A stretch of 64,000 nucleotides of DNA from Promethearchaeota archaeon Loki_b31 (GCA_005222975.1 NJBI01000001.1:64001-128000), one strand, 5' to 3'. Positions 15,055-56,355 are shown, counted from the first letter of the stretch. Numbers and translations: made by a program. Notes: generated by a model not told the origin, from the letters alone.

Positions 15055-15939
15055 ATGATTCAATACATTAATATATTGACCCGAACTGGAAAATCTTTGC
15101 TATTCAGGAATTATGGTAGTTCTGATGTGGATAGAGACTTATTAGCGGGATTTTTAAGCGCTTTTTCGGGGTTTATGAAAGAAATAAGTCAAAGCGACAT
15201 AAAATCCACGGCTACAGACGAGTTTAAGTACTATTATACAATTATTGATGAGATTATAATTGTAGTATGCACGGATCTTGTGGATGATGACGCTGTAGTT
15301 AACTCGAAAATTACGACGATAAGAGCAAAGTTCATTGAAATGTATGGAGAACTTTTAGCGAGTGGTGATTGGACCGGAAATCGCGCTATTTTTACAAACT
15401 TTGAAAGAGAGATTGACGATACGATTCTTGGCTCTATAAAAGTATCTATTATAGGAATTGGAGGCGTTGGAAAATCTACGCTCCTACGCTTAATCTGTGG
15501 CAAAGAAGTCGATTTAGAATACGTTCCAACAATAAATGTTGACATAGCTTCTTTTAACGGAGAAGAACTTGATGTTCCTCGTTCAATTGTACTTTGGGAT
15601 TTTGCGGGGCAGAGCAATTATCGGTCTTTATGGAAAAGTTTATTGGATAATACTGACTTAGCTCTCCTAGTGCTTGATTCTAGTTTTGAGAATGTAAACT
15701 ATAGTAAAGATATTATTCGGGATATTTTAGATTTTTATTATAAGGATGTTTTAGTCATTGGAATCGCGAATAAACAAGATTTGCCAAATAGGTTAACACC
15801 TAAATTTTGTGAAAGGATATTGTCCGAAACGGAAAGGGACCCACCTATTAAAGTCCACGGAATGATTGCAATTAATCCCAATTATAGAGAGAAAATTCAC
15901 GCAATCTTAAGAGAAGCCATAAATAAAATTCTTAAATAA
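15055..15939 (+). CDS. Longin domain-small GTPase fusion
   Basis: N-terminal MIQYINILTRTGKSLLFRNY...LLAGFLSAFSGFMKEI (longin pattern); C-terminal GIGGVGKST, PTI, WDFAGQ, NKQD. Confidence 0.88.
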   Translation: MIQYINILTRTGKSLLFRNYGSSDVDRDLLAGFLSAFSGFMKEISQSDIKSTATDEFKYYYTIIDEIIIVVCTDLVDDDAVVNSKITTIRAKFIEMYGELLASGDWTGNRAIFTNFEREIDDTILGSIKVSIIGIGGVGKSTLLRLICGKEVDLEYVPTINVDIASFNGEELDVPRSIVLWDFAGQSNYRSLWKSLLDNTDLALLVLDSSFENVNYSKDIIRDILDFYYKDVLVIGIANKQDLPNRLTPKFCERILSETERDPPIKVHGMIAINPNYREKIHAILREAINKILK

Positions 15940-28848: not shown

Positions 28849-29159
28849 AAGAATCTATCGTCTTTTTAAATTGTTTAATTTTTTTTTAAGAAACTAATAA
28901 TTAAAGTAAATTTTTAATCATTTTTAATTAATTGGAATGGTGTGTGAGAAGATTTATTGTTTTTAGAATTTATATTCCTAATTTTTTTATTATTTCATTG
29001 ATTTTTTCTTGAATAAGATTTGTGTTCTGTTTTGTTATATAATTAGATAATAACTTTTTTTTAATTGCTTACGTTTTTATATCTAATTACTCCGCCAATT
29101 TAGAACCGTTTAAATTGTTAATGGGTTTAAAGAAATTAATCTATTCATTATATGAAAAT

Positions 29160-29663
29160 ATGCCAAAAATAAAACATGTACTGTTCTTATGTAGTGGGAA
29201 CACCTGTAGAAGTCCATTTGCTGAATATTTTTCAAAATGGCTCCAAAAGAATGAGGATTCTAATGAATTAAAAGATATAGAATTTGATTCGGCAGGACTT
29301 TTCCACTATTATGAGCAACCTCAAGAAGGCACATTAAAATATCTTAATTCTAAAGGTGTTGAAATGGACGATTTTCAAGCCAAGGATCTCGATGAAGAAT
29401 TGATAATCAAACAAGACCTTATTCTATGTTTCGAAGAGAAATACCATGTTCGAAAATTAAAGAGAAAATTCAAGCATTTAAAGGATCTGGATGAAAAGGT
29501 TTTTTTACTATTAGAATTTGCAGGTGATACTGAAAATCTAGAAATAGAAGATCCTTTCTATTTAGAGGAAAATGAATATAATAAAGTTCTTAAAAGAATT
29601 GAAGATGGAATAATTAAATCTATTGAAAAGATTATCAAAATTAATAATTCTGAAGAATATTGA
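29160..29663 (+). CDS. Low-molecular-weight protein phosphatase (LMW-PTP family)
   Basis: P-loop CSGNTCRSP, DSAG, general acid EDPF. ATG 29160 is preferred because it matches the paralog starts. Confidence 0.9.
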   Translation: MPKIKHVLFLCSGNTCRSPFAEYFSKWLQKNEDSNELKDIEFDSAGLFHYYEQPQEGTLKYLNSKGVEMDDFQAKDLDEELIIKQDLILCFEEKYHVRKLKRKFKHLKDLDEKVFLLLEFAGDTENLEIEDPFYLEENEYNKVLKRIEDGIIKSIEKIIKINNSEEY

Positions 29664-29780: not shown

Positions 29781-31427
29781 TTACTTAAAAAAAAATCCAT
29801 ATTTCTGACTGAAATATTTATCAATAAGATATTTTGTTGAATCAAAAGGACTAACATCTCCTAAAAAATTTTTAAGATATTTCCCGAATTTTATTTCAAA
29901 ATCTTTTGAAAACTCATCAAGTTTCTTTAATAACACTGGTAAATCCATGTTTGAAATTAAGCAGACAACATGGTATTTTCCAAAAGAAAATAGAAGATGG
30001 TAGCCCTCCTTGTCAATTTTTCTTAACTGTTTTTTGCTTTGAGTTATTTCAGAAATGATTGCTACGACACCTGTCAATGCTCCAGAAATAATATCTTCAT
30101 CCATCTCATTCTTCTTCTCTTTTTCTTCCCCTTGGGGCTTTTTCTCAAAATTATGATAGTAAAGCCCAACTCCATGAACACTAAAAATATAAAGATTTAT
30201 CATTGCTGATGACCAATTCTTTTCTTTAGATATTAAAAATTCTTTCATTGCCATCATCCAAACAAGAAGAATAACTATAACAAACCCATTTAAGAGATTT
30301 GGAAAATTGGGGATGAAATTATCTAATTCTGGATAAAGTGTATACAAACCATTTATCCATCTACTAAATGTAAATCCAATAGCAATTCCCAAAAACATTA
30401 AAGCTAAAAAAAGACCATTAATACGACCTCTATATTTTAAGTTTCCTCTTTCTGTTGAAAAATCTCCAGATATAGTTTGGATTGCTAGTATAAGGGGTAG
30501 TAATGAAAATCCATAATGAATTGAAAGAAAAATTTTTCTTGGCATTCCAAATATGATAGGAGCATCTATATAAGAACCATAAGATATAAGAAAAAACGAT
30601 AGAAGTAAAATACCTAATATTATTGAAGTTTTACGACCGATATTATCTAAAAAACAACCCGCTGCAATGAGATATATTGTAGATGCCAAAAAAAAAACAA
30701 AGAAGTCTACATCAAAACTATATCGAGCTAGTAAATCCCCTAAAATAAAGCCTAATATTGTGAAACTTGATGAATATCGAAAAAATTGCTTTTCAAAAAT
30801 AATCTTAAAAAATTTCTTATCAGATTTGAGCCTCTCTTCAGTTTCTATATATTTATATTTTCTAGAACACCAAAAAATTATTAATAAAAGTATTAATACT
30901 AAAATAAAAAAATAATTGTACAAAAATTCAAAAGATACAAAAATAAAACTAAACCAACCTAAAAGGGAACATGAAGCTAGAAGAAAAGCAGTTATCCTTC
31001 CCCTATTTAAAAGATTAGTTTCATGAACTAATGTTGTAAACCATAATGTTATTAATTGAGGAACTGTCATTAATACGATTAATAAACCTATATAATATAA
31101 AATAACTTCAGAAAAAGCACTAAAAAAAATTCCTATTATACAAAAAAGCAAAACTAAATTAAAATGTCTTGTTCTATTCTTTATTTTATCAACAAGTATA
31201 ACTGAGGTAAGGAAACTAATAGCAAGTATAAATAATATTACACCTATTTCAATATTTATAACTGAAACCATTTCCGTTAAAACAACATATTTGTATAAAA
31301 AAGCCTCAATAACTAAGAAAATTGCTAAAAGAGAGAAAAATAAATAAACTAATGAGTTTTTTGACAAGTCGATATCTCTAGCAAATACTCTTACAAACCA
31401 ATTTTTGAGGGATTCCTTTTTCATCAA
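29781..31427 (-). CDS. MFS-fold multi-pass membrane protein fused to a C-terminal longin domain
   Basis: About 12 TM segments with motif-A-like loops LVDKIKNR and FLDNIGRK; last ~140 aa INLYIFSVHGVGLYYHNF...DIISGALTGV...FLGDVSPF. Confidence 0.72.
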   Translation of the reverse strand: MMKKESLKNWFVRVFARDIDLSKNSLVYLFFSLLAIFLVIEAFLYKYVVLTEMVSVINIEIGVILFILAISFLTSVILVDKIKNRTRHFNLVLLFCIIGIFFSAFSEVILYYIGLLIVLMTVPQLITLWFTTLVHETNLLNRGRITAFLLASCSLLGWFSFIFVSFEFLYNYFFILVLILLLIIFWCSRKYKYIETEERLKSDKKFFKIIFEKQFFRYSSSFTILGFILGDLLARYSFDVDFFVFFLASTIYLIAAGCFLDNIGRKTSIILGILLLSFFLISYGSYIDAPIIFGMPRKIFLSIHYGFSLLPLILAIQTISGDFSTERGNLKYRGRINGLFLALMFLGIAIGFTFSRWINGLYTLYPELDNFIPNFPNLLNGFVIVILLVWMMAMKEFLISKEKNWSSAMINLYIFSVHGVGLYYHNFEKKPQGEEKEKKNEMDEDIISGALTGVVAIISEITQSKKQLRKIDKEGYHLLFSFGKYHVVCLISNMDLPVLLKKLDEFSKDFEIKFGKYLKNFLGDVSPFDSTKYLIDKYFSQKYGFFFK

Positions 31428-31693: not shown

Positions 31694-32179
31694 ATGAGCA
31701 AAATCAAAAAAATTCTTCTCGTTTGTTTAGGAAACACAGCAAGAAGTCCCGCAGCGGAATACTTAGCTAAATTTTATGCAAAAAAATACAAATCTGATTT
31801 AAGGTTTGAGAGTGCTGGTTTTATAAATGCATTTTCATATATGCAACCTGAATCTCAAGAATATTTAAATTCAAAGGGCATTAAACATTCTGATTTTCGA
31901 CCGCAAATAATCAATCGTAAACTACTTGAAAGGCAAGACTTAATTATTACAATGGAAAAGTCACATGTTACCGATATTAGAGAAAATTATCAAGGGGTTA
32001 ACGACATCAGTAAAAAATTGTTTACTTTAAAAGAATTTAACGGAGAAACTGATGATTTAAATATAATAGATCCATATTACGCCAGTACTAAGACTTACCA
32101 GAAAGTTCTTAAAATAATTGATGAAAATATCGAAAAAATGATTAAAAAAATAATTCGGATAAATAAAACCGAACTCTAA
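31694..32179 (+). CDS. LMW-PTP family phosphatase
   Basis: CLGNTARSP, ESAG, IDPYY. Confidence 0.9.
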   Translation: MSKIKKILLVCLGNTARSPAAEYLAKFYAKKYKSDLRFESAGFINAFSYMQPESQEYLNSKGIKHSDFRPQIINRKLLERQDLIITMEKSHVTDIRENYQGVNDISKKLFTLKEFNGETDDLNIIDPYYASTKTYQKVLKIIDENIEKMIKKIIRINKTEL

Positions 32180-32198: not shown

Positions 32199-32684
32199 AT
32201 GACGAAAATAAAGCGAGTTCTGTTCATATGTTACGCAAACACATGTCGTTCGCCAGCAGCACAACATCTGGCGAACTTTTACGGTAAAAAATATGAGCTA
32301 AAAGGAGTTGTCTTCGATTCCGCGGGATGGCACAATGCTTTTGATTACGCTCAACCAGAAACAATAGATTATATACAATCAAAAGGTATTAAAATAAGTG
32401 ATTTTCAACCTAAAGTCATAACAAGAGAATTGATAGAAAAACAAGATCTTATAATAGGTATGGAACGATATCATTTAACAAAAGTTAAAAAAAGATTTAG
32501 AGATTTACAAGAACAATTAAAACAAAAATTATATACTTTGAAAGAATTTAATGGGGCAGATAAAAAGGATTTAAACGTTCCAGATCCTTATAAAACGGAG
32601 AAAAAACGATACGATGAAATATTAGAAATCGTCGAAAAAAACGTAAAGGCGCTCGTTAAGAAAGTTAAACGCATAAACCAATAA
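32199..32684 (+). CDS. LMW-PTP family phosphatase (tandem paralog)
   Basis: CYANTCRSP, DSAG, PDPYK; shares L(F/Y)TLKEFNG with the upstream copy. Confidence 0.9.
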   Translation: MTKIKRVLFICYANTCRSPAAQHLANFYGKKYELKGVVFDSAGWHNAFDYAQPETIDYIQSKGIKISDFQPKVITRELIEKQDLIIGMERYHLTKVKKRFRDLQEQLKQKLYTLKEFNGADKKDLNVPDPYKTEKKRYDEILEIVEKNVKALVKKVKRINQ

Positions 32685-32820: not shown

Positions 32821-33372
32821 ATGAATCAATTAACGATCAATAACACGGTTATAGAAATTTTTGTCGGCGATATTATTAATGCTGACTACGATGCAATTGC
32901 CATTCCTACAAATAGTCGGCTTTTGCCTAGTGGTACCTTAAGATGTCGAGTATTAAAAGGGGCGGGTCATAAAGTACACGTAGAATGTAATCGTATTATT
33001 AGTAAGATATCAAATGTTCCAATTGGGGATGCTGTAATTACTTCTGGCGGCAAATTAAATGCTAAATTTATTTTCCATGTAAGAGCAGGTCACGATCAAA
33101 AAAAATTGATGTTAGCGATCTGGAATTCGCTGAGATTAGCCGATAAAGAAGGGATACATTCAATCGCTTATCCTCCAATATCGAAAGAAGTAATCGGATT
33201 CAACGCAAAGATCTGTGCGGGTATAATTATTCCAACGATTAAGAAATTCGTTTTAGAAAGAAACAACAATTTGAGAAATGTATCAGTTTGTCTTGAATCA
33301 TTACCTGATTATAAGGATTTTGAAAATACATTAAATAATATAGCTGAATTTCCCAATATTATAATATATTAG
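32821..33372 (+). CDS. Macro domain protein (divergent)
   Basis: VGDII, DAIAIPTNSRL, GDAVITSGGKLNAKFIFH, SIAYPPIS. Confidence 0.82.
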   Translation: MNQLTINNTVIEIFVGDIINADYDAIAIPTNSRLLPSGTLRCRVLKGAGHKVHVECNRIISKISNVPIGDAVITSGGKLNAKFIFHVRAGHDQKKLMLAIWNSLRLADKEGIHSIAYPPISKEVIGFNAKICAGIIIPTIKKFVLERNNNLRNVSVCLESLPDYKDFENTLNNIAEFPNIIIY

Positions 33373-33540: not shown

Positions 33541-34101
33541 TTGGAAATAGATGAAATAAATGAAGATATTTTAAATGATATAAATAAAAATATTCAAAAT
33601 GATAGTTCTAACATTAAATCATTAAAAGGGTTTGAAATAATTTGTGAATCAATGGTTTATAAAATCCTTGATATTTTCGGTAAAAATAGTTTGCTTTCAA
33701 TGTTGTATCAGACAGGATCAGGACCGGGAGAAGTAATTGCTAAAAGGATAAAAGAAAAGCATAACAAGGAGGAATTTGGAATTTTTGAAGCTTTAGAAAT
33801 CTTAATGACCGAATTGAAAGATTTTTATTCAATACAAATTAGAGAAGTTCAATTAAATTCAGATCAAACTAGAATAATAATAGAAAATTTTTGCTTTTTA
33901 AGAGAGCCAAGTAAACGCAGAGAAAAACTGCAACCCGGGAAAGCGTTTTGCCGAGTCAATAAAGGTTATTTTGAAACGGCCTTTCGAAAATTATTAGGAA
34001 ATAAAGTTAAAAAAATAGAGATCAACTTTCTCCACGACGATCCTGAAAAAAATGTGTGTGTAGAAGAAATGATTTTTTATCATAACTCTGATAAAGTATG
34101 A
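33541..34101 (+). CDS. V4R-domain protein (V4R/Bet3-like fold)
   Basis: LYQTG...GE, IENFCFLRE, FCRVNKGYFETAF, terminal CVEE. Confidence 0.65.
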   Translation: MEIDEINEDILNDINKNIQNDSSNIKSLKGFEIICESMVYKILDIFGKNSLLSMLYQTGSGPGEVIAKRIKEKHNKEEFGIFEALEILMTELKDFYSIQIREVQLNSDQTRIIIENFCFLREPSKRREKLQPGKAFCRVNKGYFETAFRKLLGNKVKKIEINFLHDDPEKNVCVEEMIFYHNSDKV

Positions 34102-55098: not shown

Positions 55099-56355
55099 TT
55101 GATACAATCGATTTGTACATTTCAATTTAAATTGAATCAGAATGAAACTACAGGAGAGATAGATCCCGAATTTAGCCCAATTCAATTAGTGTTTAAGAAT
55201 GAGAAATTTAAAGAAGACGATTTTTCAGAGCTAATCATAGAGAACGATATCTTTGCTACGTTCTATCAACATACCACAGGTATTTTTGGTGTTAAATATG
55301 GATTCAGTAATTTTTATACTGGCCGCTTAAAAGAAACGCCATATAAAGTTTTGTCGTATTTCAAGCAGTTAGCCGATGGAACTCAATATCTTGCGATGTC
55401 TATATTTGAATTAGACGACGAAATAGAATTGTTTGAGGATTTAATTAAAGATATGGCAAAAAGATTAGACACTATTTTTGAGAAATTAACTAAAGCTGTA
55501 AATACGAGGCAATTGGATTTAGTTTCCAACGTAAATATCCGTTTAATGAACGAATTAAAATATACCATATTTCAAATTGAGCGTTTAAGTCAATTAGACA
55601 AACTTCAAAAAGTAGCTCTAATCTATAATAACGACGAACGGTTAAAAATCTTAGAAATTTTAAGAGACCAACCTATTTCAAAAAGCGAAATGAAAAAAAT
55701 TGTTGAAAAAATGAAACCTACTGCTAATATTGATATTTTACTTAGACCCTTTATAGAATTGAACTTAGTAAGGCGTGATTGGGTAAAAGGTGAGAAAGAT
55801 AAAAAGACTGGAGTGATAACAAATCAAGGAGAGTATCTATTTTTAGTCAAAGATTTAATTTTAGCCCGCATTCCCAACGAAGGTCTCTTAAAGCATTTTA
55901 AAGACACAAACAACGAGTTATTACCTTTGTTTAGGCAAAAATCTACAGACTATTTCACAAATTACGATCCCTATGCAGAACCTTTTGAAAATACCAAAAA
56001 ACTGGCTTCAATATTACTTAACCCTGATGTTTATGATTTCTTCGTCTTAATGCGTTCGAACCATTATCCACTAGATAAAATACCAAAAATCTTTTCAGAG
56101 TTCGCCGTCACAGAAATTTTGCTTGACAATTTAAAGAAATTAAACGTGATTACTGAAATTAAAGACGAAAATAAAAGAAGTTGGATTTGTTTGCTTACGG
56201 ACATCAAACCACTAACAATTTTTCCAGAATATTTGCTACCAAAAATCAGAGAAGCTTATAGAAAGGAAGAAACGGATGGAAAAATTACTTACGAAATCGC
56301 TAAAAAAGCCTTAAACTTATTGGAAATATCCTTTCCAGAAAAAGTTACTTTTTAA
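55099..56355 (+). CDS. Hypothetical protein: possible longin-like N-terminus plus two winged-helix domains
   Basis: wHTH-like ERLKILEILRDQPISKSEM...LLRPFIELNLV and DVYDFFVLMR...LLDNLKKLNVI; alpha/beta N-terminal region. Confidence 0.55.
   Translation: MIQSICTFQFKLNQNETTGEIDPEFSPIQLVFKNEKFKEDDFSELIIENDIFATFYQHTTGIFGVKYGFSNFYTGRLKETPYKVLSYFKQLADGTQYLAMSIFELDDEIELFEDLIKDMAKRLDTIFEKLTKAVNTRQLDLVSNVNIRLMNELKYTIFQIERLSQLDKLQKVALIYNNDERLKILEILRDQPISKSEMKKIVEKMKPTANIDILLRPFIELNLVRRDWVKGEKDKKTGVITNQGEYLFLVKDLILARIPNEGLLKHFKDTNNELLPLFRQKSTDYFTNYDPYAEPFENTKKLASILLNPDVYDFFVLMRSNHYPLDKIPKIFSEFAVTEILLDNLKKLNVITEIKDENKRSWICLLTDIKPLTIFPEYLLPKIREAYRKEETDGKITYEIAKKALNLLEISFPEKVTF

Follow-up and report, generated by a model that had tools for sequence, protein, structure and literature searches.

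The window analysed here is a single stretch of 64,000 nucleotides from Promethearchaeota archaeon Loki_b31 (GCA_005222975.1, NJBI01000001.1:64001-128000), with a G+C content of about 30 %. Its minus strand carries an unbroken open reading frame (ORF) whose product joins a polytopic membrane body with the major facilitator superfamily (MFS) fold to a C-terminal cytoplasmic longin domain. The protein is referred to below as MFS-longin, and its parts are located in Table 1 together with the neighbouring and related genes. The fusion of the MFS-fold body to the longin is real and conserved, and it carries no prior annotation as such; it is a new domain architecture built from known folds. More than 120 clusters defined at 90 % identity retain the full-length architecture at 46-94 % identity, and the fusion is therefore not an assembly artefact. 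The named close homologues of genes in the window come from metagenome bins of Lokiarchaeia/Promethearchaeota, while the named members of the longin subfamily are all from Asgard archaea and are labelled in the databases as “hypothetical protein” or “MFS family permease”. A search of the literature on Asgard longins (PMC4917890, preprint 10.1101/2020.10.19.343400 and PMC10933270), with Klinger et al. 2016 itself outside that search, found no fusion of a longin to an MFS or other polytopic transporter. The ORF opens with TTG-ATG, the TTG lying at 31427 and the ATG, at 31424, being the second codon. Since the orthologues begin with MKKxSIK at this ATG and the Atlas record likewise begins from residue 2, translation probably starts at 31424 and gives a product of 547 aa. 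Residue numbers are counted here from the TTG.

A first-pass annotation, made from the sequence alone, had described a body of 12 transmembrane (TM) helices with two motif-A-like loops followed by a longin, and each of these elements was recovered in the structural models. The full-length protein was modelled by AlphaFold2 (AF2) with a 41-sequence homologue alignment, reaching a predicted local distance difference test score (pLDDT) of 72. It can be observed in this model that an N-terminal amphipathic helix precedes 12 TM helices, which are interrupted by a central loop of 22 residues and followed by a C-terminal α/β domain. When the model was compared with the PDB by Foldseek, the top 50 matches were MFS carriers only, NorA, VMAT1/2, LmrP, YajR and MdfA among them, with E-values of about 1e-6 and target TM-scores of at most 0.73. 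The Pfam MFS_1 profile scored 24 bits (E 2e-5), below its gathering score of 33.4 bits, which places the protein outside the curated profile; a precomputed PF07690 match is present on about one third of the homologues. Searches of the NCBIfam models and of PDB sequences with the MFS part returned no match, which leaves the protein without assignment to an MFS subfamily or a substrate class. On the predicted fold, with 12 TM helices in two six-helix bundles, the membrane body is a divergent branch of the MFS. Motif A of the superfamily (G-x-x-x-D-R/K-x-G-R-R/K in the TM2-3 loop, with an echo in TM8-9) is present in both places. In the degenerate TM2-3 copy, which retains the Asp and one basic residue, D80 is invariant among the 41 homologues and T86 is 95 % conserved; in the canonical TM8-9 copy, D261, G264, R265 and K266 are all invariant. 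Moreover, an R-G-R sequence follows TM4 and again TM10, and the buried Glu41 of TM1 and His304/Tyr305 of TM10 are also conserved. Such retention of both cytoplasmic gating loops and of Glu41 is the pattern of a carrier still able to cycle. Pairwise identity averages 46 % in the N-terminal half of the MFS body, 61 % in its C-terminal half, 69 % in the central loop and 57.5 % in the longin; the MFS and longin halves of the protein are under similar constraint.

The connection between the two parts is short. Between the end of TM12, near residue 403, and the first longin strand, which begins at residue 409, there is a junction of about five residues that includes the invariant W405. The junction Trp is at least 90 % conserved among all membrane-tethered members in a 34-sequence alignment of diverse members of the longin family, and among the best 150 of 425 clusters the median distance from the last TM helix to the longin is nine residues. 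For the tail, residues 400-548 were folded alone with the same 34-sequence alignment, giving a pLDDT of 86.6. DSSP assigned the order β1 β2 α1 β3 β4 β5 α2 α3, with no N-terminal helix and with two C-terminal helices, which is the longin topology. The tail model was then aligned by VIA-align with 48,161 PDB representatives. The top structural match was Fuzzy (Z 12.4 over 128 residues), and Sec22 and VAMP7 (Z 11.2 each), Mon1/Ccz1 (Z 10-11), Bet5 (Z 10.8), Synbindin (Z 10.5) and the sigma/mu adaptins (Z about 10) were also matched. Foldseek with the tail agreed, returning TRAPPC1, sigma-adaptin and MON1. A roadblock fold for the tail was ruled out by topology and by aligned length, since longins covered 116-137 residues (Z 10-12.4) and roadblocks only 91-106. 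The weak sequence signals of the tail likewise all lead to longin families: the Pfam Sybindin profile scored 20.1 bits against a cut-off of 25 (E 7e-4), Fuz_longin_1 and Intu_longin_1 were matched below threshold by six and four of the 34 family members, respectively, and a profile search of the PDB gave Trs23 at E 0.025. Longins that act as GTPase-activating proteins (GAPs) of the FLCN/NPRL2/SMCR8 type possess a conserved arginine finger and a GP motif in the β1-β2 region (PMC12290439). In the longin part of both alignments (41 and 34 sequences) there was no invariant or near-invariant Arg, and the hairpin retains only a Gly. The tail is therefore not a GAP of the FLCN/NPRL2/SMCR8 type; it is a longin of the TRAPP/Mon1/Fuzzy kind rather than of the arginine-finger kind.

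Table 1. Position of MFS-longin, its parts and the related genes. Coordinates are those of the window except in the last row.
Feature	Position	Strand	Basis or remark
MFS-longin gene	29781..31427	-	one unbroken 548-codon ORF (ORF list and translation)
12-TM MFS-fold body, residues 23-403	30219..31361	-	AF2 helices, Foldseek, sub-threshold Pfam MFS_1
Degenerate motif-A-like loop V-D80-K-I-K-N-R-T, TM2/TM3	31170..31193	-	turn between helices 57-81 and 85-103
R-G-R after TM4, residues 142-144	30996..31004	-	N-half twin of the TM10-11 loop; R142, R144 invariant
Canonical motif-A-like loop L-D261-N-I-G-R-K, TM8/TM9	30630..30650	-	turn between helices 242-263 and 265-285
R-G-R after TM10, residues 333-335	30423..30431	-	R333, N337 invariant
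Junction from TM12 to longin β1, residues 400-408	30204..30230	-	S400, W405 invariant in the homologue alignment
Cytoplasmic longin-fold domain, residues 409-540	29808..30203	-	domain model, VIA-align, Foldseek, sub-threshold Pfam
Longin (about residues 1-118) with small GTPase	15055..15939	+	same longin subfamily as the tail
Stand-alone longin, 148 aa	37757..38203	-	same longin subfamily as the tail
Low-molecular-weight phosphatase, paralogue a	29115..29663	+	convergent with MFS-longin; 118 bp between ORF ends, stops included
Low-molecular-weight phosphatases, paralogues b and c	31694..32179, 32199..32684	+	divergent from MFS-longin, 266-bp spacer
Macro-domain protein	32821..33372	+	directly 3' of the phosphatases
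186-aa protein	33541..34101	+	V4R-like lead
418-aa protein	55099..56355	+	faint Pfam match of winged helix-turn-helix type only
Backbone of the group-2 context	L069, 3875-14842; also source genome (G000), contig C96, 76275-82935		gene content in text

The same longin subfamily occurs on proteins of very different build. The kinship claimed earlier between the tail and the longins at 15055 and 37757 holds: against the tail-family profile, the N-terminus of the longin-GTPase gave an hhalign probability of 95.7 % (E 9.8e-9, 109 columns), and the stand-alone longin a probability of 80 % (E 1.4e-5; E 6.5e-8 with a local hidden Markov model). Pairwise BLAST of the shared motif F..KF...L.NF.G.V.PF gave E 4e-4. 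The GTPase half of the longin-GTPase (residues 127-260) matches Pfam Roc/Arf/Ras. The 418-aa protein at 55099, also put forward as a longin partner, showed no similarity to the tail longin family, and that part of the proposal was dropped. A search of 1.84 billion representative sequences collected 425 clusters of the subfamily, of which the best 150, taken at 50 % identity, were sorted by architecture. A longin follows at least nine TM helices in 63 of these, five to eight TM helices in 24 and one to four TM helices in 37 short proteins, while eight have a large N-terminal region, then one to four TM helices and the longin. In the source genome, the profile search found 26 ORFs of the subfamily, about 16 of them with the longin C-terminal to TM segments. 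Besides MFS-longin, they comprise an 11-TM protein of 742 aa, about six proteins with 6-7 TM helices (403-444 aa), four single-pass, receptor-like proteins (757-2253 aa), several soluble longins and the longin-GTPase. The receptor-like proteins, on contigs C13, C28, C35 and C50 (loci L079-L082), begin with a signal-like helix, continue with a large region that Pfam does not match and have a membrane helix just ahead of the C-terminal longin; the longest, of 2253 aa, displays two further hydrophobic peaks. Furthermore, soluble PAS-PAS-HisKA-HATPase_c kinases of 627-639 aa, found among metagenome proteins (P0280-P0283, domain E about 1e-33), end in the same longin, which occupies the place of the receiver in hybrid kinases. 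The subfamily, which is large and Lokiarchaeial, looks like a shared C-terminal cytoplasmic docking module, or “plug”. Longin fusions are known from this lineage: Lokiarchaeum has 41 longins, five of them fused to Arf-like GTPases, according to the passage of PMC4917890 that cites Klinger 2016; fusions to two-component domains were described in the preprint of Liu et al. (10.1101/2020.10.19.343400), and Asgard roadblock and longin proteins have been the subject of structural work (Tran 2024, PMC10933270). The longin-GTPase and two-component-longin fusions belong to the same lineage and the same longin expansion as MFS-longin, and histidine kinase-longin fusions were found in the present analysis too.

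We tentatively favour a reading in which the tail acts as a docking module and, by pairing with a longin or roadblock domain, would link the carrier at the membrane to a switch of GTPase type, although we would stop short of calling it probable. It is preferred because of the precedent of longin/roadblock dimers, which are GTPase platforms in every studied system and use the central helix as dimerisation element (PMC10933270), and because of the short conserved junction, the conserved central helix, and the fusions of the same subfamily to a GTPase, kinases and receptors. In such a mechanism, the tail longin would use its central helix, which is strongly conserved, and its edge strand to pair with another longin or a roadblock domain. 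The partner could be a further copy of the tail itself, the tandem paralogue in genomes that have two, a soluble longin or the longin half of a longin-GTPase. Together they would form at the membrane a two-domain platform on which a small GTPase could dock, and the shortness of the tether might couple the platform's state to the inward or outward state of the carrier. The direction could be either from solute to GTPase, as in a sensor, or from GTPase to carrier, as in regulated transport.

The immediate surroundings of the gene consist of low-molecular-weight (LMW) phosphatases. The three paralogues are 40-50 % identical to one another, have a P-loop C-x-x-N-T-(C/A)-R-S (C-x-G-N-T-C-R-S in paralogue a) and an acid loop D-P-(Y/F)-x (D-P-F-Y in paralogue a), and have no other close copies in the genome. 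A Thr in the P-loop is the signature of YwlE-type phospho-arginine phosphatases. Matches to the Wzb/PTP and ArsC families of NCBIfam were sub-threshold. An identity as ArsC, with the carrier as an arsenic exporter, was rejected, since all three have the D-P-(Y/F)-x acid loop of LMW phosphatases and, as read from their sequences, possess neither the second nor the third Cys of thioredoxin-type ArsC. Of the 135 genomes of the family, 121 possess the array, whose genes directly adjoin one another wherever MFS-longin is missing (for example in G233, G189 and G183). MFS-longin is an insertion/deletion polymorphism within a conserved phosphatase array, and the phosphatase linkage is accordingly weakened as proof of function.

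This setting bears on a second explanation, in which no GTPase is involved and the longin is a cis-regulatory or oligomerising domain of a regulated carrier, comparable to the YAM domain of YajR or the STAS domain of SulP, with (de)phosphorylation possibly supplied by the flanking phosphatases. The YAM domain of YajR has a ferredoxin-like fold rather than a longin fold and is not known to be linked to GTPase platforms. The E. coli protein (PDB 3WDO) is an MFS carrier whose soluble cytoplasmic domain comes directly after TM12, as in MFS-longin, and Foldseek aligned the two over 519 columns. The position of the gene within the phosphatase array, where it shares its divergent spacer with two of the array genes, and the finding that the C-terminal half of the MFS body, the cytoplasmic loops and the longin are the best-conserved parts also point in this direction. 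Nevertheless, the link to an array whose genes stand adjacent without the carrier in other genomes may be positional only, a 61 %-identical orthologue in genus g2 is sited elsewhere without phosphatases, and a partner acting in trans is suggested by the presence of this longin on kinases, receptors and a GTPase. We consider a purely cis-regulated carrier rather unlikely.

The distribution of the MFS-longins was surveyed in 400 genomes of the phylum. The close orthologues (group 1) are restricted to one family; they occur in many genomes of genus g12, often as tandem pairs about 50 % identical. Group 2, about 33 % identical, occurs in further genera and also alongside group 1 in some genomes, and more distant longin fusions of MFS size exist in other orders and classes. 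The context of group 2 and of the g2 orthologue contains a Ras-family GTPase, a HAD hydrolase, a CTP_transf_1-like membrane protein, the MFS-longin, a Roadblock/LC7 protein, Rpo7, DUF359, S24e, Kae1 and a RIO-type kinase, the last of which is Bud32-like by position. In group 2 the Roadblock/LC7 gene directly adjoins the carrier in either orientation, whereas in g2 it lies three genes apart; a roadblock is present in ten of 12 loci, and the Ras-family GTPase is 3-4 kb from the group-2 carriers. Elsewhere among the paralogues, one roadblock adjoins a 6-TM-longin, and in another class a distance of 3.3 kb separates the carrier from a Ras-like GTPase. In genus g11, the gene of a 550-aa MFS-longin and that of a soluble, same-family longin of 129 aa are no more than about 0.8 kb apart (L098, 7751-10551; L100, 7490-10423), the two being a candidate heterodimer pair. 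Since the source genome has 57 GTPases and no fewer than 14 roadblocks in its 3.5 Mb, we estimated that a roadblock or longin would adjoin by chance at about 1 % of loci. The two or three independent adjacencies in about 14 contexts are thus modestly above chance and are no proof.

Several observations weigh against a GTPase-linked role. The gene is accessory, being present in 17 of 41 genomes of the source genus, and the conserved neighbours of group 1 are LMW phosphatases, not GTPases, in all eight loci from two genera (g1 and g12). The source genome keeps the roadblock/GTPase backbone on contig C96 without any MFS-longin, so that the linkage in group 2 may be positional and is weakened as proof of function. 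In about 12 other paralogue contexts there was mostly no GTPase or roadblock within 8 kb. In addition, the linked genomes all belong to one family, and synteny there may reflect inheritance rather than selection. It should also be noted that MFS carriers are normally monomeric. As for the missing neighbours, the regulators of Asgard GTPases seldom share an operon with them (PMC10933270), and therefore an absent linkage is uninformative too.

A stronger claim would be that MFS-longin is a nutrient transceptor, in which binding of a solute in the MFS cavity would be relayed by the longin to a Rag/Arf-like GTPase, transport being secondary or lost, as an archaeal analogue of SLC38A9-Ragulator. 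In eukaryotic lysosomes, SLC38A9 with Rag-Ragulator and PQLC2 with C9orf72-SMCR8-WDR41 are solute carriers coupled physically to a longin/roadblock GTPase platform. SLC38A9 has the APC fold and PQLC2 the PQ-loop fold, and the platform is bound non-covalently through tails or loops. The likeness to MFS-longin, which holds an MFS carrier and a longin in one chain, is a functional analogy and implies no homology. A transceptor would agree with the short rigid junction, with the presence of the same longin on sensor-type proteins (histidine kinases and ectodomain receptors), with a longin-GTPase of the same family 14 kb away and with group-2 paralogues that adjoin a roadblock near a Ras-like GTPase. 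However, conservation of the MFS gating motifs and of the buried acidic residue is complete, as it is in working carriers, the locus of MFS-longin has no linked GTPase, the gene is accessory within the genus, the longin is without a catalytic Arg, and the partner once proposed at 55099 is unrelated to the longin family. A transceptor is improbable. Equally hard to credit is the broadest form of the idea, an Asgard-specific signalling logic with the membrane-tethered longin as its output module, in which carriers, 7-TM proteins, single-pass receptors and histidine kinases would all report through one longin plug to longin/roadblock-GTPase switches; MFS-longin would then be a transceptor of a prokaryote and a precursor, older than eukaryotes, of the lysosomal nutrient sensors SLC38A9-Ragulator-Rag and PQLC2-C9orf72/SMCR8. 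The last alternative makes the longin a sorting or scaffold tag without role in signalling, an address that would take the protein to one region of the membrane, a protrusion or a cytoskeletal structure, as longins do for SNAREs and adaptor subunits. It would fit the spread of one longin subfamily over five or more unrelated membrane anchors in a single genome and the presence of Sec22/VAMP7 and sigma/mu adaptin longins among the best structural matches, but it is the least probable of all, since soluble histidine kinases and a GTPase have the longin too and cultured Lokiarchaeia are without reported internal membranes (PMC12290439).

Returning to the docking module, the closest counterparts of the tail in known systems include the TRAPP subunits Bet5/TRAPPC1 and Trs23/TRAPPC4 (Sybindin PF04099; PDB 3CUE, 2J3T, 7B6D), which have the same fold and topology, provide the best sequence-level signals and align with Z-scores of 10.3-10.8 in VIA-align. 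The TRAPP longins are paired to form a Rab-binding platform and are soluble subunits of a multi-protein guanine nucleotide exchange factor (GEF), whereas the tail is covalently tethered to a polytopic carrier and scores below the Pfam threshold. The RabGEFs Mon1-Ccz1 and Fuzzy-Inturned (CPLANE) are heterodimeric longin pairs that recall the tandem paralogues in many relatives; unlike MFS-longin, which has a single membrane-tethered longin, they have three longins, are soluble and possess proven GEF activity.

Asgard archaea possess dozens of longin, roadblock and small-GTPase genes. A longin placed covalently on a transporter offers a defined entry point at the membrane, and the presence of the subfamily on 7-TM proteins, surface receptors and histidine kinases widens it. 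Genomes in which paralogues stand in tandem, or in which a soluble longin or a roadblock is the neighbour, supply partner candidates by name. Should the tail recruit a GTPase platform, the coupling of a solute carrier to a longin/roadblock-GTPase switch would be older than eukaryotes; should it recruit none, the family would still define an undescribed cytoplasmic module of archaeal membrane proteins.

Two further genes stand downstream of the phosphatases. The macro-domain protein (ADP-ribose binding/hydrolase) occupies the same place in most of the group-1 loci examined. The 186-aa protein beyond it is without Pfam or NCBIfam match, and its language-model neighbours include V4R and TRAPP-component clusters, which serve as a lead only. 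An ORF of 187 aa in the group-2 slot of contig C96 was considered as a V4R-like gene as well and was rejected, being unrelated to it. Homologues of the 186-aa protein lie within about 2-3.5 kb of MFS-longin both in the phosphatase context (g1 and g12) and in the different context of g2. Lying 2 kb from the MFS-longin gene of the window, this V4R/TRAPPC3-like gene is a putative counterpart of Bet3 only, and its product is a candidate Bet3-like partner for the sybindin-like longin.

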